Origin: Candidatus Gottesmanbacteria bacterium
Lineage (GTDB): Bacteria; Patescibacteriota; Microgenomatia; UBA10105; UBA927
Direction: 5' to 3'
Length of the DNA: 64,000 nt
Assembly (NCBI GenBank): GCA_963711735.1
Contig: CAVQFA010000003.1
Coordinates: 470,966-534,965 of the forward strand
Below, one piece after another: positions 2,783 to 44,260 of this stretch. The position numbers were made by a program, and so were the translations under genes. A model generated the notes under the pieces. That model saw nothing but the letters and a program-made list of their open reading frames with translations, was not told the origin of the DNA and made no database searches. Numbering within the stretch: the stretch's first letter is position 1; the number at the start of each line of letters is the position of its first letter.

Positions 2783-3157
2783 ATGGCTAAACGTTTATTC
2801 GTCGGGAGTCTCCCGTACGACACAACAAACAATCAACTGGAAGAATTATTCGGTCAAGTTGGACAGGTCGAATCTGTAAATTTGGTTACTGACAGGTATA
2901 CCGGTCAGGGAAAAGGATTTGCATTCGTCGAAATGGTCAACGAAGCTGATGCACAGGCAGCGATCCAAAAACTCAATGGTTACGCAATGGGTGGAAGGAC
3001 TATCGTTGTCAACGAAGCACGTCCGCGCGAAGATCGTCCTAACAGGGGCGGTGGAGGTGGCGGAGGTGATTTCAGAGGCGGAAGAGGCGGTGGAGGTGAT
3101 TTCAGAGGCGGAGGTGGAGGTGGCAGAGGCGGTTTTGACAGAGGAAAGCGCTGGTAA
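2783..3157 (+). CDS. RRM-type RNA-binding protein with Gly/Arg-rich (RGG) C-terminus
   Basis: RNP-2 (LFVGSLP) and RNP-1 (KGFAFVEM) motifs. C-terminal GGGGGGDFRGGRGG repeats. SD AAGGAGGGG upstream. Confidence 0.85.
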   Translation: MAKRLFVGSLPYDTTNNQLEELFGQVGQVESVNLVTDRYTGQGKGFAFVEMVNEADAQAAIQKLNGYAMGGRTIVVNEARPREDRPNRGGGGGGGDFRGGRGGGGDFRGGGGGGRGGFDRGKRW

Positions 3158-3248: not shown

Positions 3249-4301
3249 TTAGTTTCGAAATTGCCAGAGGACATGGTAGTCATTGCTGCAGGGAGGACCT
3301 ATGGCTATCTCAATTGTTCCTGTTCCCATATCGATTACAGTTGAAAATGTAGTGTGCTGTCTATGATCTTTTCCGTCGTGTTTACAGATGGTCATTTCTG
3401 ACGGAATATTCTCAGGTCCGTGATCCCGGAGTATTTTTTTCAGTTGGGGAACGATGGGTTGTTCAGGTACTAAACTGTCGAGTAATATCTGAGCTCGTAT
3501 TAAACGGCCTGTAGAATCACCATCATCCGGTTCTTTATCATATGGTGTCATTTCTTCAGTGTAATGATTTGTGTGAACAATATGTCCGTATTCATCCGGT
3601 TTGACAATGCGATGATTTGTTGCAGATCCCTCGAAACAAACTACATGGTGATAGTCAGCTATTATATTGTTATATGATGAGGCGCGTTCCGGATGGTTTG
3701 CGATAGTCAGAGCCTCCGTTAGATCTTTTGCATCAAGAATTGCTAGCGCAATAATCCATCGTGGTATTCCTTCATCTCTACAGTCATTTTGGGATAACTC
3801 GTTTCCGGAAAGAGCTATCACGTCTCCGTTTGACTTTTTTGTCACGCCGACACTCATAAACGGACCTAAGCCGATTTCCAGAGTGCTGCCCCTATAGGTG
3901 TTCCACGTAACTACTGACACGAATGGAAGAAGTTCCGAACCGGCATCATTATTGTGGGCAATAATGGGATATGGGTTTGTGACAACCAAGTCGGTGCATT
4001 TCTTTATTTCAAAAGTATCATATGTCTCTTCGGAGGCTAAAGCGAAAATATCTTCAAACAGGAGACCTGATCCGGATGCTATTCCTCTCAGCTGATCAAT
4101 GATATGCGGAAAATGCTGTACAGATGCGGGAAGAAACTTCTGCGCGTGATTACGGACAACCTCCCATGGAGTATTAACAGTTAACTCTTTTTGCACCATC
4201 GCTAAAAAATTGTGAAGCATTTCCTGATAGTGTTTTCCTACCTTCAAACCACATTCAAGATCTGACCCTTGTGCGAAAAATGTTTCGATTGAATTACTCA
4301 T
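3249..4301 (-). CDS. hypothetical Ntn-hydrolase-like protein (possible C45 / acyl-CoA:6-APA acyltransferase-like family)
   Basis: 350-aa ORF. The overall composition and a Cys-containing segment (KKCTDLVV) resemble self-processing Ntn hydrolases. The assignment is tentative. Confidence 0.35.
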   Translation of the reverse strand: MSNSIETFFAQGSDLECGLKVGKHYQEMLHNFLAMVQKELTVNTPWEVVRNHAQKFLPASVQHFPHIIDQLRGIASGSGLLFEDIFALASEETYDTFEIKKCTDLVVTNPYPIIAHNNDAGSELLPFVSVVTWNTYRGSTLEIGLGPFMSVGVTKKSNGDVIALSGNELSQNDCRDEGIPRWIIALAILDAKDLTEALTIANHPERASSYNNIIADYHHVVCFEGSATNHRIVKPDEYGHIVHTNHYTEEMTPYDKEPDDGDSTGRLIRAQILLDSLVPEQPIVPQLKKILRDHGPENIPSEMTICKHDGKDHRQHTTFSTVIDMGTGTIEIAIGPPCSNDYHVLWQFRN

Positions 4302-5373: not shown

Positions 5374-6027
5374 ATGATAAAACTAGCAATTATAGATTTC
5401 GATGACACATTGTGCATGACTGAGGAGGCGTGTTTTCATCTTGAAAATGATGCAGCTTCGAAATTAGGATTTCCACCGATGGGCAGGGATGTGCATAAAA
5501 AAAGTTGGGGTCAACCTGTAGAAATTGCCATTCTTGAGAGAATTCCCGGAATTGACCCGGAAAAATTCATGTCAAAACTAACGGCACTAATGCCCAAGTT
5601 AATTCAGGAAGGTAAATTGGATGTAATAACCTCACAAAATCTTTCAGCACTTGATGCTTTGAAAAAAAACGGAATGCACCTGGCACTATTAACGACTCGT
5701 ACTTTTAATGAAGTTAAACATTTAATAAACAGAAGCCATCCTTTATCAACCAGGATTGAAGCGTTCTATTATAAAGAAAATTCGGTGTTCAGGAAGCCGG
5801 ACCCGAGGGTGTTCACGGAGATTCTGGAAAAATTTAACATAAAACCCCGGGAGGCTGTATATGTCGGTGATAACGTCAGTGATGCGGAGTGCGCAAAGTC
5901 AGCCGGATTGTTTTTTATAGCTTCACTTGAAAGCGGACTGAAGACTAAAAAAGATTTTGGAAAAATAGATTACTTTATTGATAAGTTTTCAGATCTCCCA
6001 AAAGCCCTAGATTTTCTCAATAAGTAA
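5374..6027 (+). CDS. HAD-superfamily hydrolase
   Basis: N-terminal DxDxT motif (IIDFDDTL) and C-terminal VGDNVSDAECAKSAG motif IV. Confidence 0.75.
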   Translation: MIKLAIIDFDDTLCMTEEACFHLENDAASKLGFPPMGRDVHKKSWGQPVEIAILERIPGIDPEKFMSKLTALMPKLIQEGKLDVITSQNLSALDALKKNGMHLALLTTRTFNEVKHLINRSHPLSTRIEAFYYKENSVFRKPDPRVFTEILEKFNIKPREAVYVGDNVSDAECAKSAGLFFIASLESGLKTKKDFGKIDYFIDKFSDLPKALDFLNK

Positions 6028-6081
6028 GTATACTTGTTGGGATGGTATTGGAACTTTTTATAGCTTCGTCATGGAGCGAAA

Positions 6082-6546
6082 TTATTTAGCACTTTTTTGA
6101 TGCATAGCTTTATCTATTAATACAACTTGATTACTTCTCAGCAGTGGCATTTTGTCTTGTGAAAAAAAACCATATGCAGACACTTCCTGACTTGGAGTAA
6201 ATTCGCCACCGATAAATAAACCGGTATAACACATGTCCAGTCGGGAGCCGTTACGATCAGTGCGGGTTTTCAGTGGTGCGTCGACGCTTACGACAAGGCC
6301 CGATTCTTCCTTTATTTCCCTTTCAAGTGCTTCTGCGGGGTGCTCGCCGGATTTTAAATAACCGCCCGGCAGACTCCAGGCGTGTTGCCTATATGTATGA
6401 TTAAAAAGTAATACTTCGTTTTTTTCATTAAAAATAACTCCTGTAACTCCGACTAAAAATTGATTCTGAAAAAGGCGCATAAAAAACAACTGTACACCTT
6501 TTGGTAGGTTTAATATTTTCCATATCTTAGCGAGTAGTGATTTCAC
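6082..6546 (-). CDS. NUDIX hydrolase
   Basis: Nudix box GGYLKSGEHPAEALEREIKEESGL. Confidence 0.8.
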   Translation of the reverse strand: MKSLLAKIWKILNLPKGVQLFFMRLFQNQFLVGVTGVIFNEKNEVLLFNHTYRQHAWSLPGGYLKSGEHPAEALEREIKEESGLVVSVDAPLKTRTDRNGSRLDMCYTGLFIGGEFTPSQEVSAYGFFSQDKMPLLRSNQVVLIDKAMHQKSAK

Positions 6547-6890
6547 AATGCGTTTTTATCTTGAGGTTCATTAGACTTGGAGTCATTTTTGAGTCTCTCG
6601 TTTTCTAACTCCAGCTGGTGAATTCGTTTGGTCAAATCAACAATATCGCTTTTCCCGTGTTTGATCGCTGAATCCTTCCTGTGCATGGAAAAGGCGGTAA
6701 AAATTGAATTGATAAGATATATACAGTACGCTAATCCCAGTCCCGTTAAAAGAGAACCGATGATGACATAAAAGAGCGGAATACCGGAGAGTACGGATGT
6801 TCCAAGGCGTAAAGTTACCAACATCGAGTTATTTTGTGCCAGATACGCCATGATAGCGCCGATAATTAATAAGAAAATAAGTATAGGCAT
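6543..6890 (-). CDS. small membrane protein, LapA/DUF1049-like (two TM helices plus coiled coil)
   Basis: Two N-terminal hydrophobic helices, then a coiled-coil tail. 4-nt overlap with the NUDIX gene. The ATG at 6890 is the likely start. Confidence 0.5.
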   Translation of the reverse strand: MPILIFLLIIGAIMAYLAQNNSMLVTLRLGTSVLSGIPLFYVIIGSLLTGLGLAYCIYLINSIFTAFSMHRKDSAIKHGKSDIVDLTKRIHQLELENERLKNDSKSNEPQDKNAL

Positions 6891-6971
6891 TTCATATAGT
6901 ATACACACTTATCAAAATATTTTCTCATAAAGTATGTTCCAACATCGTCCCCTCTGGGAGCATATTTAATA

Positions 6972-7040
6972 AATTTCTCAGTACCCCAAATGATTTCTCG
7001 TTGGAACAAGCTTTTAGCCTCAATACGAGCGTGGAAAGGA
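6972..7040 (+). repeat. Short member (copy A) of a tRNA-Glu-3'-end-seeded repeat family: ...tctcaGTACCCCaaatgatttctcGTTGGAACaagcttttagcctcaatacgagcgtgg
   Basis: About 88% identical to 8829-8900. Shares the GTACCCC and GTTGGAAC...agcctcaata words with the long copies at 11.85, 13.2 and 14.27 kb. An inverted GTTCCAAC lies about 50 bp upstream. Confidence 0.6.
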
Positions 7041-7204
7041 ATTTTAGAACCTAATCTTCTCCCAGCCTTGAAGTATGTTTACAAACGAGTATTAGAATTT
7101 TGTATATATTCACGACATTTCATTTATTATTATACATTTATAGTTTGAACTATTTTTCTTCTTCTGATTTATATGCTAATATTAAACTAAATGAAACTAA
7201 AAAT

Positions 7205-8779
7205 ATGAATAGAAACAAGTACAATAAGGAGTCGTTTATATTTTTTTTAACCTTCATTGTAATTTCAGTCTCCCTGTTTGCCACATTTTCTATTGTCAGA
7301 CGTATTCAGATAGGAGAAAGTGTTCTTCCTCAAAAATCAAAAGCCGCATCTCAAACTACTGAACATTGGTTTCACCCAAATTACCATTATAAGTTCAATC
7401 ATGACTTAGCTTCATCTGCTTGGGGAAGTTATTTCACAAATACATCACAAACCGGAAATATTTTGAATAATATTAATGTATATGGACTGTTTGTAGAGCA
7501 AATAGAGAAAAATGAAGGAAATTTCTTACAGCAACTTATACCTCTTCTTAAAAGTAAAAATATAAAAATTTCTACGGAAGGTGGTCCTGCAAAATGTAAA
7601 GATAATAAGCTCATTGATGGAGCACAATGGGCAGATTATTTTCTGAATACTCTTTTAAAACCACTTTATGATGCAGGAGGGACTGTTGACTATTTTTCTT
7701 TTAGTGGATTTCCTGCACACACAATAAGCAGAACATCAACACCTATATGTACTACTAATATTAATGAATCTCTACCTGAACTTGTCAAGTTCATGAAAAG
7801 GTTTCATGAAGTCCATCCGGAAACAAAATTCGGTCTTATTATAAATTTTCCTAATTATGGTTATGGAAATAACATATCATACTGGTCAAATAATGAACCT
7901 TGGGGAGATTATAAAAGTCATTTAGAAAAGATATTGACTGCTGTAGATAATGCAGGAGAAAAACTCTATTACGTTCATATTGATAATCCATACGATTATG
8001 CCATAGGAGAACGCCCCCATACAATCCAAGGTATCGATTGGATGCAAAGAATAGTCGATATAGAAAAACAAACAAAAATGCATGGATTACGGTTTGGTCT
8101 TATTGTTAATTCTGAACGTGGAGGAATAGGCTATGACAAAAACAGCGGAAACGATAAACAATTCTATGATGACTCGATGGCATTTCTTAAAGAGTATTAT
8201 GAAAAAGGAGGAAGACTCGATAGTGTTATAGTAGAAAGTTGGTATAACCATCCATCTGCATTATTTCCTGATTATACCCCTTATACAATGACCTACAATG
8301 CTCTTAAGGCTTATCAGTTATACGATTCATTAACAAACGGCGTTAAAACGGTCAACCGATTAAAAAATGAGTCCGGAATTACGTTTATTGTCATGAGTGC
8401 TACAGAACAGAAAAGTGCAATCGAGAAGTACGGATATAAATCGCCAACGCCTCTTTTCCGGGCATGGGAATCAAAGAACGATGCAAATCTACACCCTGTC
8501 TATAGATTATTTAAAGCAAATGAAGGGTATTTATATACCAATGGGGAAAAGGAAAAAAATAACGCAATTAGTATCTACGGGTACTCGTTAAATGGCGTTG
8601 CGTTTTACGCATATTCCCGAAAAATAAACGATTCAGTACCCGTTTATCGCTTACAGTTAACCAATTCTGACGGTGGTTCGAGATTTTTATATACTTTATC
8701 AGAAACCGAAAAAAATACGTTAATAAACAACGGTAATTATAAATTGAACGGAATAGCATTTTACGCACTCCCTCCGTAA
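7205..8779 (+). CDS. secreted/membrane-anchored protein with C-terminal tandem DUF5648-like repeats (PVYRL...G.YLYT... x2); extremely AT-rich
   Basis: Long ORF running 7100-8779, with the likely start at Met 7205 (MNRNKYNK...) followed by a TM/signal segment. Two C-terminal repeats match the YRLYNP..GDHFYT...G pattern of DUF5648. GC is far below the neighbouring genes. Confidence 0.55.
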   Translation: MNRNKYNKESFIFFLTFIVISVSLFATFSIVRRIQIGESVLPQKSKAASQTTEHWFHPNYHYKFNHDLASSAWGSYFTNTSQTGNILNNINVYGLFVEQIEKNEGNFLQQLIPLLKSKNIKISTEGGPAKCKDNKLIDGAQWADYFLNTLLKPLYDAGGTVDYFSFSGFPAHTISRTSTPICTTNINESLPELVKFMKRFHEVHPETKFGLIINFPNYGYGNNISYWSNNEPWGDYKSHLEKILTAVDNAGEKLYYVHIDNPYDYAIGERPHTIQGIDWMQRIVDIEKQTKMHGLRFGLIVNSERGGIGYDKNSGNDKQFYDDSMAFLKEYYEKGGRLDSVIVESWYNHPSALFPDYTPYTMTYNALKAYQLYDSLTNGVKTVNRLKNESGITFIVMSATEQKSAIEKYGYKSPTPLFRAWESKNDANLHPVYRLFKANEGYLYTNGEKEKNNAISIYGYSLNGVAFYAYSRKINDSVPVYRLQLTNSDGGSRFLYTLSETEKNTLINNGNYKLNGIAFYALPP

Positions 8780-8828
8780 ATTTTAGTGAGGATCGAAGAT
8801 CGTCAATCCGTTATAGTAATTTTAGTAG

Positions 8829-8900
8829 AAATTTCTGTACCCCAAATGATTTCTCGTTGGAACCAGATTTTATCTTCAATACGAGCGTGGGAAGAATACC
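8829..8900 (+). repeat. Short member (copy B) of the same repeat family, a direct repeat of 6972-7040 flanking the 7205-8779 gene
   Basis: gaaatttctGTACCCCaaatgatttctcGTTGGAACcagattttatcttcaatacgagcgtggg, about 88% identical to copy A. Confidence 0.6.
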
Positions 8901-9099
8901 TGAATTCGGTTTCGTTGCAACTTTGCAATGTTACTACTAATTAGAATTAAATACATCCGTTGTGATGATTGAAAAAATTACTGGTATTAATCTGGGTCTA
9001 TGAGGTAAGGACTTAGTATAGTTGCTATTTTATTGTTTTTAGGTATATACTTTCACTCATTATAAAGTATCTGCCTGCTGCCTCATTTTCTATATCAAT

Positions 9100-10914
9100 A
9101 TGAATGCTAAAACTGAAGTTCCACTAAACACGCATCAGGCTCAATATGTTTCTGAACAATTAACGTCATTTCAACCTGAAAAAGCGAAAGGTACAAATAG
9201 TTTATTAGAATCTCTCTTCAGATCCATAAATACATTAGGAAATGAGTATGCGTTTCTGGCAGCTGCTCAGCTCAACGGTGACTCCGACTATCAAAACATG
9301 ATTGCAGAAAGGGTCATTGCCAAGGAATATCAGCATCTTCAAAAACCAAAGACTATGGACGCATACAATGAAGCGGTTCGGATCGGCAGAGAAACCGAAA
9401 CTGTAAAAAGGGTGTTATTTGCCCGAGTTCTACTGGAACATCCCGAGTCATTCTCTCCGGTCGAACATGAACTATTGGGCGGTGCAGTTATACTTTCCCA
9501 ATACGCGGACACTATATTTTTCGATGAATGGTTGCCAACTATACGTGATAGTGAGATAGGTAAAGCTCTGCATGCACTAGAAGAACAAGCAGCCGGCTCA
9601 TCATTGGGTGTACTACCCGGGACTCCCGATTCAATGCGTTGGTTTACTAGAAAACTCATTGATTCTGACAAACCCATTGAAAAAGATAATATTCAGCTGG
9701 TTCCATATAAAGATGCACTTCCCACTGTTAACAACATGATAGTTTCACTCAGGGAAATGGCTGACAATTTGGAACTGTTAAAACACGAAGGACAGGATGA
9801 TTTCGGGTATGTTGAATATTTCCGGGCATGGGCAGAGTGTCTGGCAGGAGTTGATCCTAATACTCAAAAAGAGAAAGAGGATAATATGTTTATCACCTGG
9901 AGAAGAGTCAATCCTCAAGCGCCTCTGTATTTCGTCGCAATGGCTGAAAATGAATATGAAGATCCAGCTGGAATAGCAATGGTTCCGTCAGTTCGAGCTG
10001 GGGTTTTGGATGAGTCCGATCAAGCACAAAGTCTCAAACTGCAGGAATCAGATTTGAAAAATGTGATCATACAATATACAACAGAACAAAATGTGTTCGG
10101 CGCGGAAAATCTTAAAAGGACAGATACTCACTACCGGATCTGGTCGCTGTTCGGCGGGTCAGATATGCTTTTTGGTATCTCCTCAGAATTTTTACCAAAT
10201 GATCCCGGTATACAAAGTAAAGAAGGAGCAGGGATATTCCCGGACCTTGCCCAGCAGGAAAAAGGGCATTATACACGAGATGTGTTTGCAGAAAAAGTGT
10301 ATCCCGAACCAATTCTCACAATTCTTAGAGATCTAAGATTTTCCTTGCAAGAAGGTTCAATTCATGAAATTCAATCACATGAACTCAATCATTTACCAGC
10401 GGTCACTCTGGAGGCAATTAACGCGATTGGGAAAACCAGAAATCTTCTGGAAGAAGCAAAGGCCACACTGGGAGGTTTAATCGCTCAAATACGAATTCGA
10501 CATAATCAGGATATAGAATTTCAAAAACGGGCAGCTGCAACACTACTTCATGCGGCACCTCGGTATATGGCAATTGACGGAAATCCGACATATCAGGGAT
10601 ATGTCAACGACACGAGGATAGTACTCATTGCAGCAGAAAAAGCAAACATACTAACGTTTAATGAGGCCAACGGATGGAGTCTGGATCTGGACAATACTGA
10701 CAAAATTGTATGGTTTTGGAACTTAATTGAAGAGTTTGTCGCATGGACGTATCACTTGTATGCTGATGTGACAGATGCACCAGTTGAGCAAAGGCCGGGA
10801 ATCGCCCAAAGAAATGCCGGGGAATTGGATACTTGGGTTGGTAAAAAACCTGAACCGGGTAATGATTTAGTAAATGATCGAACTATACGGGCTATAAAAT
10901 CTGCTCTTCAATAA
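9100..10914 (+). CDS. hypothetical cytoplasmic protein (604 aa), cargo gene
   Basis: Long uninterrupted ORF. No SD, no signal peptide and no recognisable domain. Contains a single HELNH (HExxH-like) string. Confidence 0.5.
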   Translation: MNAKTEVPLNTHQAQYVSEQLTSFQPEKAKGTNSLLESLFRSINTLGNEYAFLAAAQLNGDSDYQNMIAERVIAKEYQHLQKPKTMDAYNEAVRIGRETETVKRVLFARVLLEHPESFSPVEHELLGGAVILSQYADTIFFDEWLPTIRDSEIGKALHALEEQAAGSSLGVLPGTPDSMRWFTRKLIDSDKPIEKDNIQLVPYKDALPTVNNMIVSLREMADNLELLKHEGQDDFGYVEYFRAWAECLAGVDPNTQKEKEDNMFITWRRVNPQAPLYFVAMAENEYEDPAGIAMVPSVRAGVLDESDQAQSLKLQESDLKNVIIQYTTEQNVFGAENLKRTDTHYRIWSLFGGSDMLFGISSEFLPNDPGIQSKEGAGIFPDLAQQEKGHYTRDVFAEKVYPEPILTILRDLRFSLQEGSIHEIQSHELNHLPAVTLEAINAIGKTRNLLEEAKATLGGLIAQIRIRHNQDIEFQKRAAATLLHAAPRYMAIDGNPTYQGYVNDTRIVLIAAEKANILTFNEANGWSLDLDNTDKIVWFWNLIEEFVAWTYHLYADVTDAPVEQRPGIAQRNAGELDTWVGKKPEPGNDLVNDRTIRAIKSALQ

Positions 10915-11012
10915 GATAAATCCCTATATATACTCACCTGTGATATTCATCTACGTTGGATCAACGATATTTGATCTTGGAACACGGGTTGTTATAACAG
11001 GAAGAACTTTTA

Positions 11013-11072
11013 ATTTTGTACCCCGTAGCTTATCAAATTAGGACTTATTTTCAATCGATGATTTGATAATAA
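11013..11072 (+). repeat. Degenerate family member (copy C): ttttGTACCCCgtagc followed by a 9-bp-stem hairpin (ttatcaaat...atttgataa)
   Basis: Only the ttttgtacccc word and the upstream TTGGAACAC word are shared, so membership is weak. Confidence 0.25.
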
Positions 11073-11093
11073 TTATTTGGTATCTTCAGTTTG

Positions 11094-11639
11094 TTAATTC
11101 TGAATAGCTTGATCTGCTGGATACTTCCATTGATTTAAGTTTTTTTGAAATACTTGTCCAATATTATTGTGTAAACGAGCAACAACTGTTAGCAAATCTT
11201 CTGGCAAATCAAATGCTAAACCATTTTCAGTACCATAAAGAATTGACCCGTCTTGTGCTGTTACTACTCCGCAATCTAATCCAAAATCACGTTCATCGTT
11301 ACCGGGTATTCGATAAGTAAATTCTGTCTCAGTTGTGTGTGTATTAAAATTAAATAAACCATCAAATGATAATGTATCTGCATCTAAGATTTTTTGATCG
11401 TCTGGTGATAACATCTGTGCTGCCTCTTGAATAATTATTGGATTTAACCAGGCAGCATCAAGATGTGCTGTTAATTCCTTTATACCTTGCTTTCTTTCTG
11501 ATCCTATATCAGATAAATCTGCTTCTTCAAGTCGTGCTTGATCGAGCAATTCAATAGGCAATCCCAATTCTTCCATTCGTGCAATTACCAGGTTTGAGGC
11601 TAGCTCACGAATTTGTTGTGGTATTTCATGATCAGACAT
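11094..11639 (-). CDS. hypothetical acidic protein (181 aa), cargo gene on the opposite strand
   Basis: ORF with a good SD (AAGGAGGAA) immediately upstream on the minus strand (11641-11650). Confidence 0.5.
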   Translation of the reverse strand: MSDHEIPQQIRELASNLVIARMEELGLPIELLDQARLEEADLSDIGSERKQGIKELTAHLDAAWLNPIIIQEAAQMLSPDDQKILDADTLSFDGLFNFNTHTTETEFTYRIPGNDERDFGLDCGVVTAQDGSILYGTENGLAFDLPEDLLTVVARLHNNIGQVFQKNLNQWKYPADQAIQN

Positions 11640-11848
11640 ATTCCTCCTTAGTGAGCAGGAAGGTAATAATAATGATTTTCTTTGAAGAAATCAATGATTA
11701 TAAAAACTAAATCAAGTGCCTAGTTAATTAGACAGCCATCCTTTTCATTAGGGATGGGTTACCAACATAGGGCATAGATTAACTAGATATCTAAGGTTGT
11801 CCTTAAAATATAGAGGCTACTGTAAACGATTGTTGTATCACTTTTATT

Positions 11849-12050
11849 TGGTACCCCCTGCCGGATTGCCGCGATTACTCGACACTCGCCAGCACTAAAG
11901 CTCGTTGACTCGCTAAGTGCTGGTTGGCGAACCTCCGGTTCTCATCTAATGCAGAGTATTGCATAAAAAAATCGGGCGTAAAACCCGATATTTTTATGCA
12001 GTACACGTGTTGGAACCAAATTGGAACATATTTTAATCTCAACCACTTAG
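11849..12050 (+). repeat. Long divergent family member (R0): tRNA-3'-end-like GTACCCCCTGCCGGATT, imperfect hairpin module, palindromic terminator, tail GTACACGTGTTGGAAC...GGAACATATTTT
   Basis: About 75% identical to 13207-13420 over about 200 bp. Hairpin arms differ but keep their pairing (compensatory changes). The terminator is GCATAAAAAAATCGGGCGTAAAACCCGATATTTTTATGC. Confidence 0.6.
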
Positions 12051-12160
12051 ATTTCAATCCGCATTAATAAGAAATTGGTGAATTTGGTTCATAGTATTAA
12101 TTAGATAAATATCTTATAGTTGTTAATGAAAGTATTCATTGATATAATGCTCCAATTATT

Positions 12161-13198
12161 ATGTCGTATGTACCTGAAACTCTTGTATTAACACTTTCCC
12201 GGCAGTGTAATATTGAATGTAGTCACTGTATCGTCGAAGCAGAACCGAGAATATCAGAAGAACTTGATGTCAATATCATTAATTCTTCGCTTAGGCAAGC
12301 AAAGCAAATTGGCATACGAACTGTTTGCATCTATGGTGGAGAACCGTTTCTCCAGACCAGCGGACTTCTTCCTCACACCATACGCCAAACCTTTGCTGAG
12401 GGATTTCCTTTCGTTTCAATCGGAACAAATGGATTTTGGGGAAGAACAGAAGCACAGGCACAAAAAACACTATCCGAGTTGAAAAAGATAGTTAGCTCTT
12501 ATGACGGTATGATTGGTCTTGGCATGTCAGTAGACCGATTCCACCAACCGAGCGTACCACCACAATCAATTGCAAATATAATTTCAGTTCATAGACGTGG
12601 TAATTTCCCAAATATTCGATTAGGAATTCATACGTTCAAAGATCAACCATCATTTGATATTGTCGGACAGGTATATGATCGTGCGATGCGTAATGATTTG
12701 CATATGATCGAGAGTAATGACGCAGGATATATATATCCTGCGTTGAGAGAAGAGTTTATCGAGTTTTCCAGTGAGAACTTTCCCGTCATTAGACGTAATC
12801 TTGATTTACCTGAGGATGCAGATGAAAAGCATATCTTTGAATCACTTGTATTCAATCTTGATGTTTCACATGCAATGCGCGATGTGATGTTACCAAAAAT
12901 AATCGCACGTCAGATGGATATCGGTAACGGATTCGAAAATTACTTGATCTTTCCCAATCATACATATTTATTAGATTTTATTGTTGAGGAAAAAGTACTG
13001 AATGCCGGAAGGGCAAGGATTTCAGGTAATTTAGAAACTGCCCGCGATATGGACTCAGATACTGACTATTTGGTCATCGCTCCAAATGGTCAAGCATATG
13101 CCTATCCTGCTCATATTACCGCAGAATCAGGAATTATTATCGGAAATAAATCACTAAAACAGGTTGTAAGAGAAGTTGAAAACAAATGGTTCTATTAG
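12161..13198 (+). CDS. radical SAM domain protein (CX3CX2C motif C-N-I-E-C-S-H-C); cargo gene
   Basis: Canonical CxxxCxxC cluster at residues 16-23, followed by a glycine-rich SAM-binding segment (CIYGGEPF). No SPASM/twitch Cys cluster. Confidence 0.7.
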   Translation: MSYVPETLVLTLSRQCNIECSHCIVEAEPRISEELDVNIINSSLRQAKQIGIRTVCIYGGEPFLQTSGLLPHTIRQTFAEGFPFVSIGTNGFWGRTEAQAQKTLSELKKIVSSYDGMIGLGMSVDRFHQPSVPPQSIANIISVHRRGNFPNIRLGIHTFKDQPSFDIVGQVYDRAMRNDLHMIESNDAGYIYPALREEFIEFSSENFPVIRRNLDLPEDADEKHIFESLVFNLDVSHAMRDVMLPKIIARQMDIGNGFENYLIFPNHTYLLDFIVEEKVLNAGRARISGNLETARDMDSDTDYLVIAPNGQAYAYPAHITAESGIIIGNKSLKQVVREVENKWFY

Positions 13199-13206
13199 TT
13201 TAAAAA

Positions 13207-13368
13207 GTACCCCCAGTCGGATTCACTGCAAAGCTACGCTTTGAGTGCTCGCCAGCAGTATGACTCGTAAATATGAATTTACTCGTTAACTGCTGGTTAG
13301 CGAACCTTCGGTTCTCACCGACATGGGCATGAAAAAAGCACCCATTAGGGTGCTTTTTTCATGAGTAC
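13207..13368 (+). repeat. Repeat R1, a 162-bp unit 100% identical to 14266-14427. Its first 18 nt (GTACCCCCAGTCGGATTC) match the 3' end of the tRNA-Glu gene exactly
   Basis: Exact identity read from the sequence. Contains an imperfect hairpin (CGCCAGCAGT...ACTGCTGG) and a perfect 16-bp-stem hairpin CATGAAAAAAGCACCC-atta-GGGTGCTTTTTTCATG. A degenerate tail GTACACCTGTTGGGACGATGTTGGAACATATTT follows to about 13420. Confidence 0.9.
13328..13363. terminator. Perfect 16-bp-stem, 4-nt-loop hairpin with A-tract and T-tract arms (bidirectional intrinsic terminator) inside repeat R1
   Basis: CATGAAAAAAGCACCC ATTA GGGTGCTTTTTTCATG. Confidence 0.7.
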
Positions 13369-13471
13369 ACCTGTTGGGACGATGTTGGAACATATTTAGC
13401 CTCAAATATCTAAGTAATATATTTTTTTACGAGAGTATTATTCGGAAAATCAAATATGTTACACTGAATAT

Positions 13472-14260
13472 ATGAGTGAATCTGACATAAAAGTTAATAT
13501 TCAGCCGTCAGAAATTCAGCCTCAATCCGAACAGCCAAAGGAAGCCCGCGCACCAGTCCCCGGAATGAATAAAATAAAGTCATCTCATCTTCAGATAGCA
13601 TTGATGGCACTTCTTCTTATATCGATCACTACAGCAGGATATCTTGGTTATAAGTATTACGTATTCAATAATACATTAACTGTTACGCCGCCACAGCCTG
13701 AACAACCAGTTAAAACCATACCAACAATTACCCCTATTCTGACACCAGTATTTTCAATATCAGTAAATCCCGCTACAGGTCAGAATTTATATTCAAACAC
13801 AACATATGGGTTTAGTTTTGAATATCCTAAGGATTTTGTTATTGAAAATCAAAACCCCCCTAGTATTGGAGTAATGGGTAACAATATTGTCGGGCTCATC
13901 CGAAGATCTATGTACTTCCTGCCTAACTACCTACAAAATATAAGTAGGTATAATGAATATCGAAATCGGTTCACCAATATAAAAAAGCTAAATGTCGGAG
14001 AGTCGTACACATATGAACCAGTAGATACTTTTTTTGAGACGACAACCAGAATAGCTGATATGAAAATCGGAGGAATAACTTCTTATGTTTTTGATGTTCC
14101 TAAGGTTTGGGAAGGGGAAGGACCGTATAGAGAAATATATTTACCCAAAGGTGATGATTATATACAGATATTTTATACGAATTCTAACGATAAAGAAGAT
14201 CCGATTGATTACGTAAAAGGCTTTAACCAGATTCTATCCACTTTTAAATTTACTTATTGA
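13472..14260 (+). CDS. hypothetical membrane-anchored protein (262 aa), cargo gene flanked by the perfect repeats
   Basis: A hydrophobic helix at about residue 40 and a Pro-rich linker. No motif. Confidence 0.5.
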   Translation: MSESDIKVNIQPSEIQPQSEQPKEARAPVPGMNKIKSSHLQIALMALLLISITTAGYLGYKYYVFNNTLTVTPPQPEQPVKTIPTITPILTPVFSISVNPATGQNLYSNTTYGFSFEYPKDFVIENQNPPSIGVMGNNIVGLIRRSMYFLPNYLQNISRYNEYRNRFTNIKKLNVGESYTYEPVDTFFETTTRIADMKIGGITSYVFDVPKVWEGEGPYREIYLPKGDDYIQIFYTNSNDKEDPIDYVKGFNQILSTFKFTY

Positions 14261-14265
14261 TTTTT

Positions 14266-14427
14266 GTACCCCCAGTCGGATTCACTGCAAAGCTACGCTT
14301 TGAGTGCTCGCCAGCAGTATGACTCGTAAATATGAATTTACTCGTTAACTGCTGGTTAGCGAACCTTCGGTTCTCACCGACATGGGCATGAAAAAAGCAC
14401 CCATTAGGGTGCTTTTTTCATGAGTAC
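14266..14427 (+). repeat. Repeat R2, a 162-bp unit identical to R1 that abuts the tRNA-Glu gene and overlaps its 3' end by 4 nt; it includes the tRNA's terminator
   Basis: 100% identical to 13207-13368. Its terminal GTAC is the start of the genuine tRNA 3' segment. Confidence 0.9.
14388..14423. terminator. Perfect hairpin terminator immediately downstream of tRNA-Glu (minus strand), also able to act on plus-strand transcripts
   Basis: Same sequence as 13328-13363. Confidence 0.7.
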
Positions 14428-14498
14428 CCCCAGTCGGATTCGAACCGACGGTCTACACGTTGAGAACGTGTCGTCCTAGGCCGCTAGACGATGGGGGC
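14425..14498 (-). tRNA. tRNA-Glu, anticodon CUC
   Basis: Reverse complement GCCCCCAUCGUCUAGCGGCCUAGGACGACACGUUCUCAACGUGUAGACCGUCGGUUCGAAUCCGACUGGGGGUA folds as a cloverleaf (GUCU D-stem, ACACG/CGUGU anticodon stem, loop UUCUCAA, T-arm GUCGG-UUCGAAU-CCGAC). Close to E. coli tRNA-Glu. CCA is not encoded, and pair 1-72 is G.U. Confidence 0.85.
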
Positions 14499-15426: not shown

Positions 15427-17742
15427 ATGTTCTGGGCAGACAGAATTGCAAAAGAAATCATTGGCAGCGGACTCTATCGTCCTTTTTGGGCGGATGATAT
15501 GTTCACCCCCTCAGGTTATGCACACATTGGTTCATTGCGTGGTCCCTTAGTCCATGACGTTATCTACCGTGCAATAACCGATGCAGGACAAAAAGCAGTG
15601 TCGACGTATGTTTTCAACGACTTTGATCCTGTGGACGGATTACCGTCTGAGCTTATGCATCTGTCCGATGAGCTTGGCAAACCGCTCCGCCTGGCGAAAT
15701 CTCCTGACGGCGGATACGCGAACTTCGCAGCGTACTTTGCACATGATTTTCAGACAGTGCTTCGGTCGCTCGGAGTCGGAGCGGAATTTCTCTCCAGCTG
15801 GGATATGTATCACGAAGGGAAATTTGACGGTGTTATCCGTACTGCCTTGGATCATGCACCCCTCATCCAGGACATCTATCAGCGTGTGAGCGGGAGCAAA
15901 AAACGCGAAAAAGGATGGCTTCCTCTTCAGGTTATCTGCGAGAAATGCGGGAAACTCGGAACAACGAGGGTGCATGATTGGGACGGGACGTTTGTTACAT
16001 ACACATGTGAAGAATCCATGGTTTCATGGGCAAAAGGATGTGGGTTTACCGGGAAAACCAGTCCGTTTACGGACCCGGATGATCCGAAACATCATCCCGG
16101 CAAGCTGCCGTGGAAAGTAGACTGGCCGGCACACTGGAGGGTCCTTGGCGTGACGATTGAAGGAGCAGGTAAAGACCATTCATCCGCGGGAGGTTCCCGG
16201 GATATCGCGAAGGTTCAGTGCAAAGAAGTCTTTGAAATACCGGAACCGTACAATCTGCCATACGAATTCTTTCTCATTGGAGGCAGGAAAATGTCCTCTT
16301 CTAAGGGGATCGGTCTCAAAGCTCGGGAGCTAACGGAAATCCTTCCGCCTCAATTAGGCAGATTTCTTTTCGTCCGCACGGATTACCACCAGGCAATAGA
16401 ATTTGATCCGGTCGGTACAACGGCAATTCCTGATTTGTTTGATGAGTACGACCGGTGTTTCACGGCATATGTAAACGGAGGCGATGAAAATCTGTCCCGT
16501 GCATTTGTATTATCACAAATCGGTAAAGTCCCGGAGAAATCTCCGGTTTTCATCCCGAGATTTCGCGACATTACCAATGTGCTTCAAACCCCTCACGCAG
16601 ATGCGGGTAAAATATTTACACAAAAAGCCGGACGGGTACTTACCGGACAGGAAGAAGAGATACTCAGGGAACGTATCTCATATGCACGTCTTTGGCTTTC
16701 TAAATTTGCACCTGAGGAAATGCTCACATCAATGACGAAAGAAATTCCCGATGATGTGAGAACTTTATCAGGGACACAGAGAGATTTTCTTACCCGTGTT
16801 GCCGATATGGTGAAGGATGCACAAAATCCTGAGAAACTACAGGAAGATTTATATGCACTCACGAAGGAAATGAAGATGAGCACAAAGGATGCTTTTTCTT
16901 CACTTTATATAGCGCTTATCGGGAGGAAGTACGGTCCCAAAGCAGCATGGTTTCTCCTCCAATATCCCAAAGATACCGTTGTGACACGCTTACGTGATGC
17001 AGCGAAACACCGGGAAGAAAAAGTTAAGCACGCTCCGGAGGATTTTGAAGTGATTGTTAAACCCGAATTTTTTACGATAGATCCTGCAGTGACGAAGTCG
17101 TACCCTACCGTTTCAATCGGAATTGCATTCATATCAAATGTCCACATAACTCTCAAAAATAATGAGCTGGAAAAGGAAAAAGCAAAAACTGTGGAACAAA
17201 TCCGCACCAATACTCTTGAAGAACTGGGAAGCTCTCCGGAGATAGTAAGCTACAGGAAGCTCTATAAACAAATGGGTATCGATTGGCATTCCCGGAGACC
17301 CTCTCCCGAGGCGCTTGTGCGGAGAATCATACAGGGCAAAGGACTCTATGAGGTAAACACGTGTGTGGATGCATATAATCTGTCAGTGGTGAAAAATCTG
17401 GTTTCCGTCGGTGCATTTGATGCGGACTCTATAAAGTTTCCGACCGTCTTGCGGTTTGCCAAAAGCGGTGATGAGATTCTTCTCCACGGCGACACCAAAC
17501 CGACAGCGTATACATCCGAAGAGCTGGCATACTATGATAAGTCCGGAGGATACAACATTGATTTTAACTACCGTGATGCCAAACGTACGCTCGTCACGGT
17601 TCATACGAAGAATATCTGGATAAACGTTGACGGTATATATGACATTTCAAAAGAGGCAGTATGGCATACGCTTCTCTCTGCTATAACGGGAATTATGAAA
17701 TACTGCGGCGGCACGCTTGAGTGGAAAGGGTTAGTGACATAA
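15427..17742 (+). CDS. lysK: class I lysyl-tRNA synthetase (archaeal-type LysRS) fused to a C-terminal B3/4 domain
   Basis: HIGH-type motif (YAHIGS) and KMSKS-type motif (KMSSSKG). The C-terminal roughly 210 aa (nt about 17100-17742) match the B3/4 domain (PSPEALVRRIIQG...VNTCVDAYNLSVV...GAFDADSI). Confidence 0.8.
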   Translation: MFWADRIAKEIIGSGLYRPFWADDMFTPSGYAHIGSLRGPLVHDVIYRAITDAGQKAVSTYVFNDFDPVDGLPSELMHLSDELGKPLRLAKSPDGGYANFAAYFAHDFQTVLRSLGVGAEFLSSWDMYHEGKFDGVIRTALDHAPLIQDIYQRVSGSKKREKGWLPLQVICEKCGKLGTTRVHDWDGTFVTYTCEESMVSWAKGCGFTGKTSPFTDPDDPKHHPGKLPWKVDWPAHWRVLGVTIEGAGKDHSSAGGSRDIAKVQCKEVFEIPEPYNLPYEFFLIGGRKMSSSKGIGLKARELTEILPPQLGRFLFVRTDYHQAIEFDPVGTTAIPDLFDEYDRCFTAYVNGGDENLSRAFVLSQIGKVPEKSPVFIPRFRDITNVLQTPHADAGKIFTQKAGRVLTGQEEEILRERISYARLWLSKFAPEEMLTSMTKEIPDDVRTLSGTQRDFLTRVADMVKDAQNPEKLQEDLYALTKEMKMSTKDAFSSLYIALIGRKYGPKAAWFLLQYPKDTVVTRLRDAAKHREEKVKHAPEDFEVIVKPEFFTIDPAVTKSYPTVSIGIAFISNVHITLKNNELEKEKAKTVEQIRTNTLEELGSSPEIVSYRKLYKQMGIDWHSRRPSPEALVRRIIQGKGLYEVNTCVDAYNLSVVKNLVSVGAFDADSIKFPTVLRFAKSGDEILLHGDTKPTAYTSEELAYYDKSGGYNIDFNYRDAKRTLVTVHTKNIWINVDGIYDISKEAVWHTLLSAITGIMKYCGGTLEWKGLVT

Positions 17743-42376: not shown

Positions 42377-43588
42377 CTATTCGTATCGGATCGCTTCCAT
42401 AGGAGACAGTTCAGCTGCGCGTTTAGCCGGCATCACGCCAAACACAACCCCGACAAGTGAAGAGACCCCGAGTGCAACGATGACGGTTGTTGTATCGATA
42501 TACGCCGGAAACAGACTTTGCATAGCCAATACTATTACGTATGAAACGACAAGACCTAAAAATCCGCCAAAAATGGATAAAAGAACGGATTCAGCCAGAA
42601 ATTGATATAAAATGTCGCTTCTTCTTGCTCCTATTGCCCTTCTGATTCCGATCTCGCGGATCCGTTCCACTACGGAAACATACATGATATTCATAATTCC
42701 TACCCCGCCCACAACGAGGGATATTGCCGCTATCGCAACAAGTATGGTATTTAAAATATTAAAAATGGAATTGATTGTGTTGAGAATTTCAGTCGGTTCA
42801 ATAACAGAAAATTCGTCTGTTTTGTAGCGCTTCAGAAGAATTTTTTTGGCATCGGTCTTGATTTGGGCCATCGAATCTTCTGAATCGGCTTTAATATAGA
42901 TTGCATAGTAGGTTTTATCCGGATTGAAACTGGATGCAGCTTTAACCGGTATATATACATGTTCATCTACACTGGGAGTACCTAATCCACCGCCTCCGCC
43001 TTTGGATACGGCAACACCGACTACCCGGAATGCCTGTGTTTCAATTTTTATGATTTTACCCAAAGCATCGTCAGCAGTTCCGAACAGCTGTTCGGCAGTT
43101 TTTGATCCGAGAACTGCCACTTTTGCGCCTTTATCGGCGTCGCTTTTTTCAAACAACCGGCCAATGTCCGCTTCAATGTTCATCACGGGAAACATATCTG
43201 CTGTTGATGCAGCGATTTCGACGGATTTTGAGTCTATCTGACCCTGAATTTTAGAAAATTTTATGAAAAAAGGTACCGTGTATTCGGAATTTTTAATTTT
43301 TTTAAGTGATGCTACATCTTTATCGTCAAAACGGATTCCACCTACCATACTGCCACCCATTCCGCTCATATCCCCTCCGGACATATCTCCCGGCATGATA
43401 AATACGGTATTAGAACCCATACTTTCGAATTGTTGCTGGATATAACGTTTAAGCCCCAGACCCATTGCTATCAGAAGAACGACTGAGGAAATGCCGATAA
43501 ATATGCCAAGCGATGTAAGAAAGGTACGCAGTTTATTGCGACGGAAATCATCCAACGCTGTTTTTATGATAAACGTAAAATTATTCAT
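42377..43588 (-). CDS. ABC transporter permease, MacB/FtsX-like family
   Basis: N-terminal TM, a large periplasmic domain and the C-terminal FtsX 3-TM module. Confidence 0.8.
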   Translation of the reverse strand: MNNFTFIIKTALDDFRRNKLRTFLTSLGIFIGISSVVLLIAMGLGLKRYIQQQFESMGSNTVFIMPGDMSGGDMSGMGGSMVGGIRFDDKDVASLKKIKNSEYTVPFFIKFSKIQGQIDSKSVEIAASTADMFPVMNIEADIGRLFEKSDADKGAKVAVLGSKTAEQLFGTADDALGKIIKIETQAFRVVGVAVSKGGGGGLGTPSVDEHVYIPVKAASSFNPDKTYYAIYIKADSEDSMAQIKTDAKKILLKRYKTDEFSVIEPTEILNTINSIFNILNTILVAIAAISLVVGGVGIMNIMYVSVVERIREIGIRRAIGARRSDILYQFLAESVLLSIFGGFLGLVVSYVIVLAMQSLFPAYIDTTTVIVALGVSSLVGVVFGVMPAKRAAELSPMEAIRYE

Positions 43589-43590
43589 AA

Positions 43591-44260
43591 TTACTCAATG
43601 ATTTTTCCGTCCCGTATATGAATCTGACGACGGGTTCTGTCCGCTACGTCTTTCTCATGGGTAACAAGAACTATTGTGACATGTTCTTTTTTATTGAGAT
43701 CTTCCAATAGATCCAGAATTGCATTACCGTTTGCAGTATCCAGATTGCCCGTAGGTTCGTCAGCGAGTATCAGATCCGGTTTCATCATAAGCGCCCGGGC
43801 GATAGATACGCGCTGCTGCTGGCCCCCGGAAATTTTATTCGGAAAAGAGTAAGCTTTTTCTTTGATACCGAAATGTCCGAATCAGTTCCATCGCACGTTC
43901 TTTTGGGTCGAAATCAAGCTTCCGTCTCGCGTATATCGTAGGCAAAAGAATGTTTTCAAGATTCGTAAGTTTATTTATTAAATTAAATTGCTGGAAAACA
44001 AAACCGACGAATTCACTCCGCAGAGTCGAAAGTTCATTGTCGGATAAATGAGATATGTCTTTTCCGTTCACAGTAATATCACCACGTGTGGGTTGATCCA
44101 AAAGTCCGATGATATGCATGAGTGTTGATTTTCCCGAACCGGAAGGTCCCAAAATTGCAGAATATTCACCTTTTTGTATACTCAGGGAAACATTATCAAG
44201 CGCCCGAAAAAGTTCACCGCCTATATCGTATTCTTTGAAGATTTTCGAGAGTTTAATCAT
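43591..44260 (-). pseudogene. ABC transporter ATP-binding protein (MacB/LolD-type) interrupted by a frameshift around 43862-43885
   Basis: The N-terminal ORF 43835-44260 carries Walker A (GPSGSGKST). The C-terminal ORF 43591-43788 carries Walker B and the H-loop. The signature LSGGQQQRV is readable in the C-terminal frame upstream of its Met. The two frames are joined only by a 1-nt shift. Confidence 0.65.

Follow-up and report, generated by a model that had tools for sequence, protein, structure and literature searches.

What does a solitary radical S-adenosylmethionine (SAM) gene lodged between two repeats act on, and by what route did it come to lie there? The question is posed by an open reading frame (ORF) of 345 amino acids (aa) at 12161–13198 (+ strand) of a 64,000-nucleotide (nt) stretch of a Candidatus Gottesmanbacteria genome (the window; positions 470,966 to 534,965 of contig CAVQFA010000003.1, assembly GCA_963711735.1), which an earlier note on this DNA had described as an orphan radical SAM enzyme carried as a cassette. 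The reading that we favor, with a probability of roughly one-half, is that the product of the ORF is a functional, stand-alone enzyme from a rare family, and that its gene forms a single-gene module anchored at a tRNA-Glu gene, which site-specific recombination would have put in place with a recombinase encoded elsewhere in the genome. The tRNA-Glu-anchored array, with its conserved structured boundary unit, is a more unusual part of the locus than the enzyme.

The radical SAM protein and its nearest relatives

The protein begins MSYVPETLVLTLSRQCNIECSHC from an ATG start and carries its CX3CX2C motif, CNIECSHC, at residues 16–23 (codons at 12206–12229, + strand). The three motif cysteines, C16, C20 and C23, are the predicted [4Fe-4S] ligands and are invariant across the 18 aligned family sequences. 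The one remaining cysteine, C56, is unconserved in the family alignment and none lies beyond it; therefore the protein has no SPASM or twitch cysteine motif, and the earlier note was right both about the N-terminal motif of a stand-alone radical SAM protein and about the missing auxiliary cluster. Further conserved motifs are GGEPF (residues 59–63), TNGFWG (89–94), SVDRFHQP (123–130), YPAL (192–195), NAGRAR (280–285) and APNGQAYAYPAH (307–318). Pfam assigns residues 12–109 to Radical_SAM (PF04055) marginally above the cutoff (30.4 versus 29.5 bits), a match to Fer4_12 falls below threshold, and the Pfam scan of the ORF found no B12-binding or SPASM domain. The CX3CX2C motif, the PF04055 match and a partial TIM barrel with a GGE SAM-binding motif place the protein in the radical SAM superfamily, its cluster being predicted. 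The ORF is not a chance reading frame, because it has 19 homologs, the weakest of them at an E-value of 1e-45.

An AlphaFold2 model of the full protein has a mean predicted local distance difference test score (pLDDT) of 93.4. Modeled alone, the C-terminal 110 residues reach a pLDDT of only 64, too poor for a fold search, a low confidence suggesting that these residues are packed against the barrel and probably not a separate domain. Upstream of the gene lies a promoter-like site, TTGTTA-17 nt-(TG)aTATAAT (12120–12148, + strand), recognized by consensus match only and ending 12 nt 5' of the ATG; in homolog loci TGATATAAT or GTTATAAT occurs at an equal distance from the start. The gene thus looks self-promoted from this putative promoter, with a nearly leaderless mRNA. 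What the earlier note had taken for a 100-bp leader (12060–12160) is accordingly mostly promoter sequence, the TTGTTA-17-TG.TATAAT element ending at 12148, and a scan of this segment and of nearby small ORFs for a precursor peptide yielded no credible peptide ORF. Three small ORFs considered as precursors (11875–12057, 11924–12067 and 12120–12191) were set aside, as they overlap the repeat unit or promoter and are unconserved.

Among characterized enzymes, the closest is the peptide epimerase EpeE, or YydG, of Bacillus subtilis (PDB 8ai1–8ai6; TIGR04078). The YydG model TIGR04078 is the best NCBIfam match (64.4 bits against a cutoff of 300, residues 6–170), with all other models at or below 41 bits. 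In searches of PDB sequences, a single-sequence query retrieved YydG/EpeE with an E-value of 1.3e-11, followed by viperin at 4.5e-4, and a family-profile query retrieved YydG/EpeE at 2e-25 over residues 7–174, followed by SkfB at 3e-6. Foldseek against the PDB likewise ranked EpeE best (E-value of 4e-11), then SuiB and SkfB. The two proteins are alike in size (~320–345 aa), both have CX3CX2C at the extreme N terminus, neither has a ribosomally synthesized, post-translationally modified peptide (RiPP) recognition element (RRE) domain, and a profile alignment shows the motifs GGE.FL, NGFWG and S.D.YH.P to be common to the radical SAM family and YydG/EpeE. EpeE, however, is defined by its radical SAM cluster together with one auxiliary [4Fe-4S] cluster in a T-SPASM (extended twitch) domain and by Cys223 as hydrogen-atom donor (PMC13012085). 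Both the auxiliary cluster and the Cys223 donor are missing from the window protein, which has no C-terminal cysteine; its C-terminal ~120 residues cannot be superposed on EpeE, and its gene lacks an operon of the EpeE kind with an epeX/yydF-type precursor, protease and ABC exporter. One homolog only, P0007, adjoins ABC exporters. By sequence and model, the protein has a predicted EpeE-like catalytic core and stands outside the EpeE/YydG family.

The comparison with other radical SAM enzymes is less close. Unlike the SPASM/twitch RiPP maturases SkfB, SuiB, ChlB, PqqE and CteB, the window protein has no auxiliary-cluster cysteines, and no RRE or other leader-binding domain was detected in it, nor a precursor peptide adjacent to its gene. 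Prokaryotic viperins (pVips) are also stand-alone, single-cluster radical SAM proteins of ~300–350 aa that often lie in variable islands, but the likeness is of a generic, N-terminal kind (29–33 bits against a cutoff of 180) and structural superposition is confined to ~170–206 residues.

The family is small. Apart from an identical entry, searches of 5.8 billion protein clusters gave homologs of 32–56% identity, 19 in all, the best non-identical one with an E-value of 4e-123. A profile built from 18 members retrieved 31 proteins at E < 1e-30 from 1.84 billion representatives, ~20–25 of them alignable over their full length, and more than 1,600 proteins that match just the first ~170 residues. 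Invariant family positions are Y3, C16, C20, C23, E61 (in GGEPF), N90 (TNGFWG), S123, D125 and H128 (S.D.YHQP), Y192, P265, A282 (NAGRAR) and Y313. Neither the family alignment nor the more distant full-length relatives contain a conserved cysteine outside the cluster motif. C-terminal cysteine clusters are present in most of the distant relatives that have only the N-terminal core in common, and the cluster-free state is therefore an unusual feature of this family.

No true family member was found in the GTDB species genomes, in which the family search returned only distant relatives with the N-terminal core in common. Four homologs (P0016, P0017, P0021 and P0034, from loci L003–L006) carry Trp in place of Gly residues that the family keeps invariant. 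Their genes, which contain in-frame UGA, cannot be translated under table 11. This indicates that their organisms use UGA as a glycine codon, as in genetic code 25, and that the source annotation evidently read UGA as Trp. Code 25 is that of the Gracilibacteria and Absconditabacteria. Because of this signature, of the 567-kb contig that encodes the identical protein, of related contigs from groundwater samples (one labeled '01um') and of a distant relative in a Peribacteria metagenome-assembled genome (MAG), the family appears to be confined to the candidate phyla radiation (CPR)/Patescibacteria. The Candidatus Peribacteria relative, a protein of 451 aa (L011:5941–7296), adjoins ORFs that we judged from their translations to be queF-like, queC-like and, in two cases, YhhQ-like (L011:3230–7296), the last presumably of the queuosine-precursor transporter type. 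This distant branch may be linked to 7-deazapurine metabolism.

The earlier note had found no obvious partner for the gene, such as a precursor peptide or B12 domain, and had called it an orphan; both statements hold over a wider sample. We retrieved the genomic context of ten homologs and compared neighbors by all-against-all BLASTP (E ≤ 0.05; ORFs of at least 20–25 aa up to 3–5 kb to either side, first in 8 and later in 11 loci). No protein or peptide is common to the loci by this comparison, except among loci of the same genome or in synteny. The neighbors differ at each locus: a CxxCxxCC protein with a TP_methylase and an IS200-like transposase at one, and elsewhere two ABC exporters, lysine-biosynthesis genes, SufBD, a glyoxalase-like gene, GNAT with GGDEF, or YceG with SNase. 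Neither the Pfam scan nor BLASTP within ±5 kb at 10 loci brought out a partner, precursor or B12 domain, and a housekeeping radical SAM family with conserved context was sought and not found. At locus L001, a perfect 47-nt tandem duplication (L001:10749–10842) lies beside an IS200-like (Y1_Tnp) gene, ~1.7 kb downstream of the radical SAM homolog.

In the chemistry that we propose, C16, C20 and C23 would hold a single [4Fe-4S] cluster, and the GGEPF, TNGFWG and S.D.YHQP motifs, to judge from their counterparts in EpeE/YydG, would help to bind SAM or form the active site. Reductive cleavage of SAM would yield a 5'-deoxyadenosyl radical that takes a hydrogen atom from a substrate supplied in trans. 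EpeE-type, cysteine-mediated epimerization is impossible because there is neither an auxiliary cluster nor a cysteine hydrogen donor; the substrate radical might instead be quenched by a non-cysteine donor, for example the invariant Y192 or Y313, or the chemistry may be wholly different. The substrate is probably a peptide or protein, because the core is nearest to that of the RiPP epimerase EpeE/YydG and next to those of SkfB, ChlB and SuiB.

Several observations weigh against a peptide-modifying enzyme of this kind. The likeness to EpeE is limited to the N-terminal ~175 residues by sequence and 225 by structure, and the C-terminal 110–120 residues are without a structural match as well as without a confident fold of their own. 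RiPP maturases typically have a precursor gene nearby, and none adjoins the radical SAM gene in 10 loci; the distant relative beside queC, queF and yhhQ genes may point to another type of substrate. An enzyme acting on a nucleotide or small molecule, be it an antiviral nucleotide dehydratase like viperin or, as with QueE/MoaA, a catalyst of 7-deazapurine or cofactor chemistry, would account for that neighborhood and for a partnerless, single-cluster protein resembling the pVips; the PADLOC defense-system scan gave two pVip matches (33 and 30 bits, residues 11–118), and some family members are named 'organic radical activating enzyme' by JGI. We nonetheless regard it as improbable. Viperin and pVip models score far under their cutoffs and cover only the generic N-terminal core (NF038283, 29 bits against 180), EpeE is clearly nearest by both sequence and fold, and the gene has no kinase or queuosine genes nearby, either in the window or in the 10 family loci. 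Membership of a defense system was rejected, the PADLOC matches being weak and generic, and viral relatives were rejected by structure, since a viral structure library returned only generic radical SAM matches, all with template modeling (TM) scores below 0.46. A housekeeping enzyme that modifies RNA or protein, such as the adjoining tRNA, would fit the position of the gene beside tRNA genes in three loci (the window, L032 and L008), but is very unlikely: the family is very rare and patchy, it has no match to methylthiotransferase, RlmN/Cfr, TYW1 or similar families, and it sits here in a low-GC variable island, with a context unlike that at every other locus. The adjacency to tRNAs is explained by tRNA 3' ends serving as insertion points.

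The repeat units and the array at tRNA-Glu

The gene does lie between two repeat units, as the earlier note had it. Unit 1 (11851–12035, – strand), upstream of the gene and diverged, consists of a core resembling a tRNA 3' end, GTACCCCCTGCCGGATT (11851–11867), and a structured region, and includes a bidirectional terminator-like hairpin (11971–11989) and a boundary motif (12005–12033). Unit 2 (13207–13371, – strand) starts 8 nt past the stop codon and comprises an 18-nt core (13207–13224) that matches the tRNA-Glu 3' end exactly, along with three hairpins and a terminator hairpin (13328–13363), followed by the boundary motif GGGACGATGTTGGAACATATTT at 13377–13400. A third unit (14266–14430, – strand), which has no cargo, abuts the tRNA gene and is 99% identical to unit 2 over 165 nt. 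The anchor of the array is tRNA-Glu(CTC) itself (14424–14498, – strand), and units 2 and 3 begin with the reverse complement of its 3'-terminal 18 nt, GTACCCCCAGTCGGATTC; unit 1 has a 17-nt core with two changes at 11851. Counting the tRNA and the altered copy in unit 1, the 18-nt core occurs four times in the window against 0.01 expected. A covariance model of the unit finds exactly three copies in the window (11843–11959, 13199–13332 and 14258–14391; E-values of 1e-29 to 5e-26).

Beyond the units, the array extends outward as a series of shorter traces of the tRNA end. GTACCCC occurs seven times on the + strand over 7.4 kb (6981–14424), against ~0.45 expected, and always between genes; the remaining 56 kb of the window contain four more copies on either strand. 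The most distal boundary, B1 (6981–7038, + strand), consists of GTACCCC, ~12 nt and GTTGGAAC...TTTTAGCCTCAA, lacks the unit, and precedes a DUF5648 gene (7100–8779). B2 (8837–8894, + strand) is 85% identical to B1 and precedes a DUF7897/CiaB-like gene (9100–10914), and B3 (11018–11060, + strand), GTACCCC with a TTAGGACTTATTTTCAATC-type motif, precedes a gene of 181 aa on the – strand (11094–11639). All three boundaries thus contain only GTACCCC and a motif resembling TTGGAAC...TTTTAGCCTCAA, which reads as a degenerate copy of the tRNA acceptor and T-arm. Outward from the tRNA, the order is unit 3 without cargo (14266), a gene of 262 aa with unit 2 (13207), the radical SAM gene with unit 1 (11851), the 181-aa gene with B3 (11018), the DUF7897/CiaB-like gene with B2 (8837) and the DUF5648 gene with B1 (6981). 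The 262-aa gene (13472–14260, + strand) encodes a protein that has a membrane anchor at its N terminus and matches no family; the gene is missing from the locus of the closest homolog, L032.

Seven tRNA-end relics (6981–14424) thereby mark off six modules in an island whose GC content is 0.31–0.41, against ~0.43–0.47 beyond. The relics are better preserved nearer the tRNA, as expected if insertions at the tRNA push older ones outward. The flanks of the island hold housekeeping genes, namely greA, lysS, serS, secA, purine biosynthesis genes, ruvABC, prfA, ftsEX and rhamnose genes. Just outside the most distal boundary, at 6932–6955, lies an inverted boundary motif (AGTATGTTCCAACATCGTCCCC, the reverse complement of 13379–13400).

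Predicted folds of the units are highly stable for both strands (z-scores near –8), and Rfam scans of the unit at gathering and permissive thresholds returned only the tRNA and sub-threshold noise, with no matching RNA family. Two structural interpretations were dropped: a tRNA-like cloverleaf, as the closing helix that resembles an acceptor stem in the window copy is not preserved in other genomes, and a hammerhead, as the CUGGUGAG segment is incompatible with the hammerhead core. The boundary motif GGACGATGTTRGAAC was also considered as a promoter element and rejected, since its distance to the –10 element varies in the window and in locus L008 it lies on the same side of genes on either strand.

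In other genomes, the unit is mostly found next to tRNA genes. Initial patterns, TGCTGGTTRGCGAACCTYCGGTTCTCAYC and GGTTRGCGAACCTYCGGTTCTCA, matched nothing in collections of genomes, viruses or metagenomes; a less strict, gapped pattern based on the parts common to the window and L032 matched 14 metagenome contigs and no viral contigs. In most of the 14 the unit lies just 3' of tRNA-Glu, often past a terminator hairpin. The last ~18 nt of each unit are the 3' end of its own genome's tRNA, though these ends vary (GGCACGGGGTAC, GGCTGGGGGTAC, CCACACGGGGTAC); in L036 the unit follows tRNA-Cys and ends with the last 8 nt of that tRNA. An alignment of 16 units shows the invariant blocks GGTTCGC.A.CCAGCA and TGCTGG.GAG around hairpins that vary in sequence and keep their pairing, with compensatory changes in 7 of the 16 predicted pairs. 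By the covariance model, the largest array, at L040:983–8237, has six units over ~7 kb beside tRNA-Glu and greA, two of them identical and spaced by 517 nt, and L048 has two units.

A cassette array of a second type occurs at locus L008, where a ~50-nt repeat, TTGTGCAGGCTAGTGGACGATGTTAGAACCTATTTCACGGGTGAAAAG, is present in seven + strand copies that stand at every gene boundary whatever the orientation of the genes (L008:684–4776). The repeat contains GGACGATGTTRGAAC.TATTT, a 20-nt motif common to the window boundaries. The final copy stands immediately upstream of the radical SAM gene of this locus, and tRNA-Tyr and tRNA-Thr close the array.

Cargo differences and the proposed origin of the array

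The claim that the gene is carried as a cassette, which the earlier note had made from the repeats, gains support from syntenic loci. The order array, tRNA-Glu, greA is common to the window, L032, L040 and L041, with lysS present in L040 as well. In L032, which encodes the closest homolog (56% identity), the radical SAM gene is accompanied by a homologous unit, tRNA-Glu(CTC) and greA (76% identity), and the 262-aa module that separates the gene from the tRNA in the window is absent. The cargo of L040 is of another kind, comprising a low-molecular-weight phosphatase, a GNAT protein, a PAS protein and unassigned genes. In both L032 and L047, a slot is framed by Lon and a beta-lactamase-like gene (51% identical) to one side and by the unit with tRNA-Glu to the other; it contains the radical SAM gene in L032 and an unrelated ORF of 255 aa on the opposite strand in L047. 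A Logan contig that encodes the exact protein (6,967 nt; gene at 5892–6929) stops 38 nt past the gene, at the start of the repeat. Taken together, anatomy and comparison suggest that the modules are mobile. Near the tRNA of L032, its tRNA-Glu(CTC) 3' end reads ..CTACGCGCCA and a GIY-YIG nuclease ORF (3462–3830, – strand) lies between the tRNA and greA (L032:3411–3830).

In the mechanism that we favor, the radical SAM gene would be a single-gene module with its own promoter and terminator, one of six arrayed at the 3' end of tRNA-Glu. Every module boundary keeps a relic of the tRNA 3' end, and the three youngest also have a ~130-nt structured unit and terminator. The array would have grown through successive rounds of site-specific recombination, each within the T-loop and 3' end of the tRNA, with the recombinase encoded elsewhere in the genome.

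This reading, too, faces contrary evidence. Five Pfam batches over 58 larger ORFs of the window (a few mid-sized ORFs went unscanned) found no recombinase, nor was one found in the L040 array, and neither an excised-circle junction nor an excision polymorphism was seen for the array. By covariance model, the unit is present in only 2 of ~10 independent radical SAM loci and in none of the rest. The core of the L032 unit is unlike the tRNA-Glu that now adjoins it; it is identical to the tRNA-Glu 3' end of L040 and L041, which suggests that the tRNA-Glu gene of L032 has itself been replaced.

Units 2 and 3, at 99% identity, could equally stem from Campbell-type homologous recombination, and the array might then have been built without any dedicated site-specific system. 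The unit would be a chromosomal RNA gene, or a 3' untranslated region or terminator module near tRNA-Glu, that serves as a homology anchor; transformed or circular DNA would insert by RecA-type Campbell recombination and duplicate the unit in the process. The near-identity of units 2 and 3 extends over the full 165 nt, much longer than a typical attachment (att) core, and both sequence and structure of the unit are conserved across many genomes, like those of a functional RNA, a likeness to which the great stability of its folds on either strand (z ~–8) adds. No recombinase turned up near any array examined. We consider this origin possible but doubtful, because the ends of the units track the tRNA 3' end of each genome, down to the tRNA-Cys of L036, which is the classic signature of att duplication by an integrase. 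Moreover, the older boundaries B1–B3 are tRNA-end relics without the unit, and Rfam contains no matching RNA family. Site-specific recombination therefore remains our preferred explanation of the array.

Known tRNA-anchored islands offer a close parallel. Elements of the integrase-less cis-mobilizable element (CIME) type accrete at such islands. The tycheposon islands of Prochlorococcus are tRNA-anchored and built by successive integrations (bioRxiv 10.1101/2020.12.28.424599). Like the window array, tycheposon and CIME islands start at a tRNA, and incomplete copies of its 3' end separate their cargo segments; older insertions likewise seem to be displaced outward by newer ones, older relics are more degenerate, and cargo varies among relatives. 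The window has the direct repeats of the tRNA 3' end expected of a tRNA island (18 nt at 13207 and 14266, 17 nt at 11851 and 7 nt at 6981, 8837 and 11018) and variable cargo at the same site, whereas no integrase was found among the scanned window ORFs or in L040. It differs from those islands in that its modules are single genes of ~1–2 kb with no integrase, replication or excision genes, and in the conserved ~130-nt structured unit of its younger boundaries, which is not described there.

Integron arrays (attI/attC/IntI) share other features with the window, namely tandem single-gene cassettes at one fixed anchor site and a bounding element that is an imperfect palindrome, with conserved flanks and a variable hairpin tip whose structure is kept. 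In the unit, a 7-bp outer stem and internal loops lead up to a tip hairpin that varies, and inspection by eye alone showed no canonical R''/L''/L'/R' or GTTRRRY/RYYYAAC boxes. In contrast to integrons, the array has no IntI next to it (58 larger ORFs scanned), its identity segment is a tRNA 3' end, and its cassettes are self-promoted and stand in either orientation. A more far-reaching proposal, which we put forward only tentatively, would make the locus an undescribed integron-like gene-capture system of the CPR, with the tRNA-Glu T-loop and 3' end as fixed site, the ~130-nt unit as cassette recombination site, a recombinase acting in trans and self-promoted single-gene cassettes. The enzyme would in that case represent a new EpeE-like class with a single cluster and no cysteine donor, which would act on a peptide or protein encoded in trans and have its radical quenched by tyrosine or solvent. 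A literature search found no description of a tRNA-Glu array with a structured boundary unit, which is no proof that none has been described. A study of horizontal transfer among Patescibacteria of groundwater describes numerous genomic islands without mentioning tRNA, integrase, integron or cassette (PMC12455944).

The setting points to a recurrent hotspot beside tRNA-Glu, at which single self-expressed genes are exchanged and the end of a structured element tracks its own tRNA. If active, such a hotspot would be a compact means of gene capture in genomes of ~0.6–1 Mb, whose routes of horizontal transfer are poorly understood. As for the enzyme, the family keeps an EpeE/YydG-type core without the auxiliary cluster and cysteine hydrogen donor, both thought essential for EpeE chemistry, and the identity of its substrate would reveal what such a core can do with one cluster. 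Should neither the enzymology nor the hotspot hold, the locus would be one more uncharacterized radical SAM gene in a genomic island.

Other features of the window

Three further features lie outside the array. The 771-aa protein encoded at 15427–17742 joins a class I lysyl-tRNA synthetase to a B3_4 domain at its C terminus, an unusual combination. At 42377–44260, a MacB/FtsX-type permease gene (42377–43588, – strand) is separated by a 250-nt gap from an ABC_tran ORF of 140 aa (43835–44260), and the ATPase gene there may be split or frameshifted. Finally, the ORF at 2783–3157 encodes an RRM-domain protein with a Gly-rich C-terminal tail derived from 30-nt GGN-rich repeats (3043–3135), and a similar repeat is found at 573–602.

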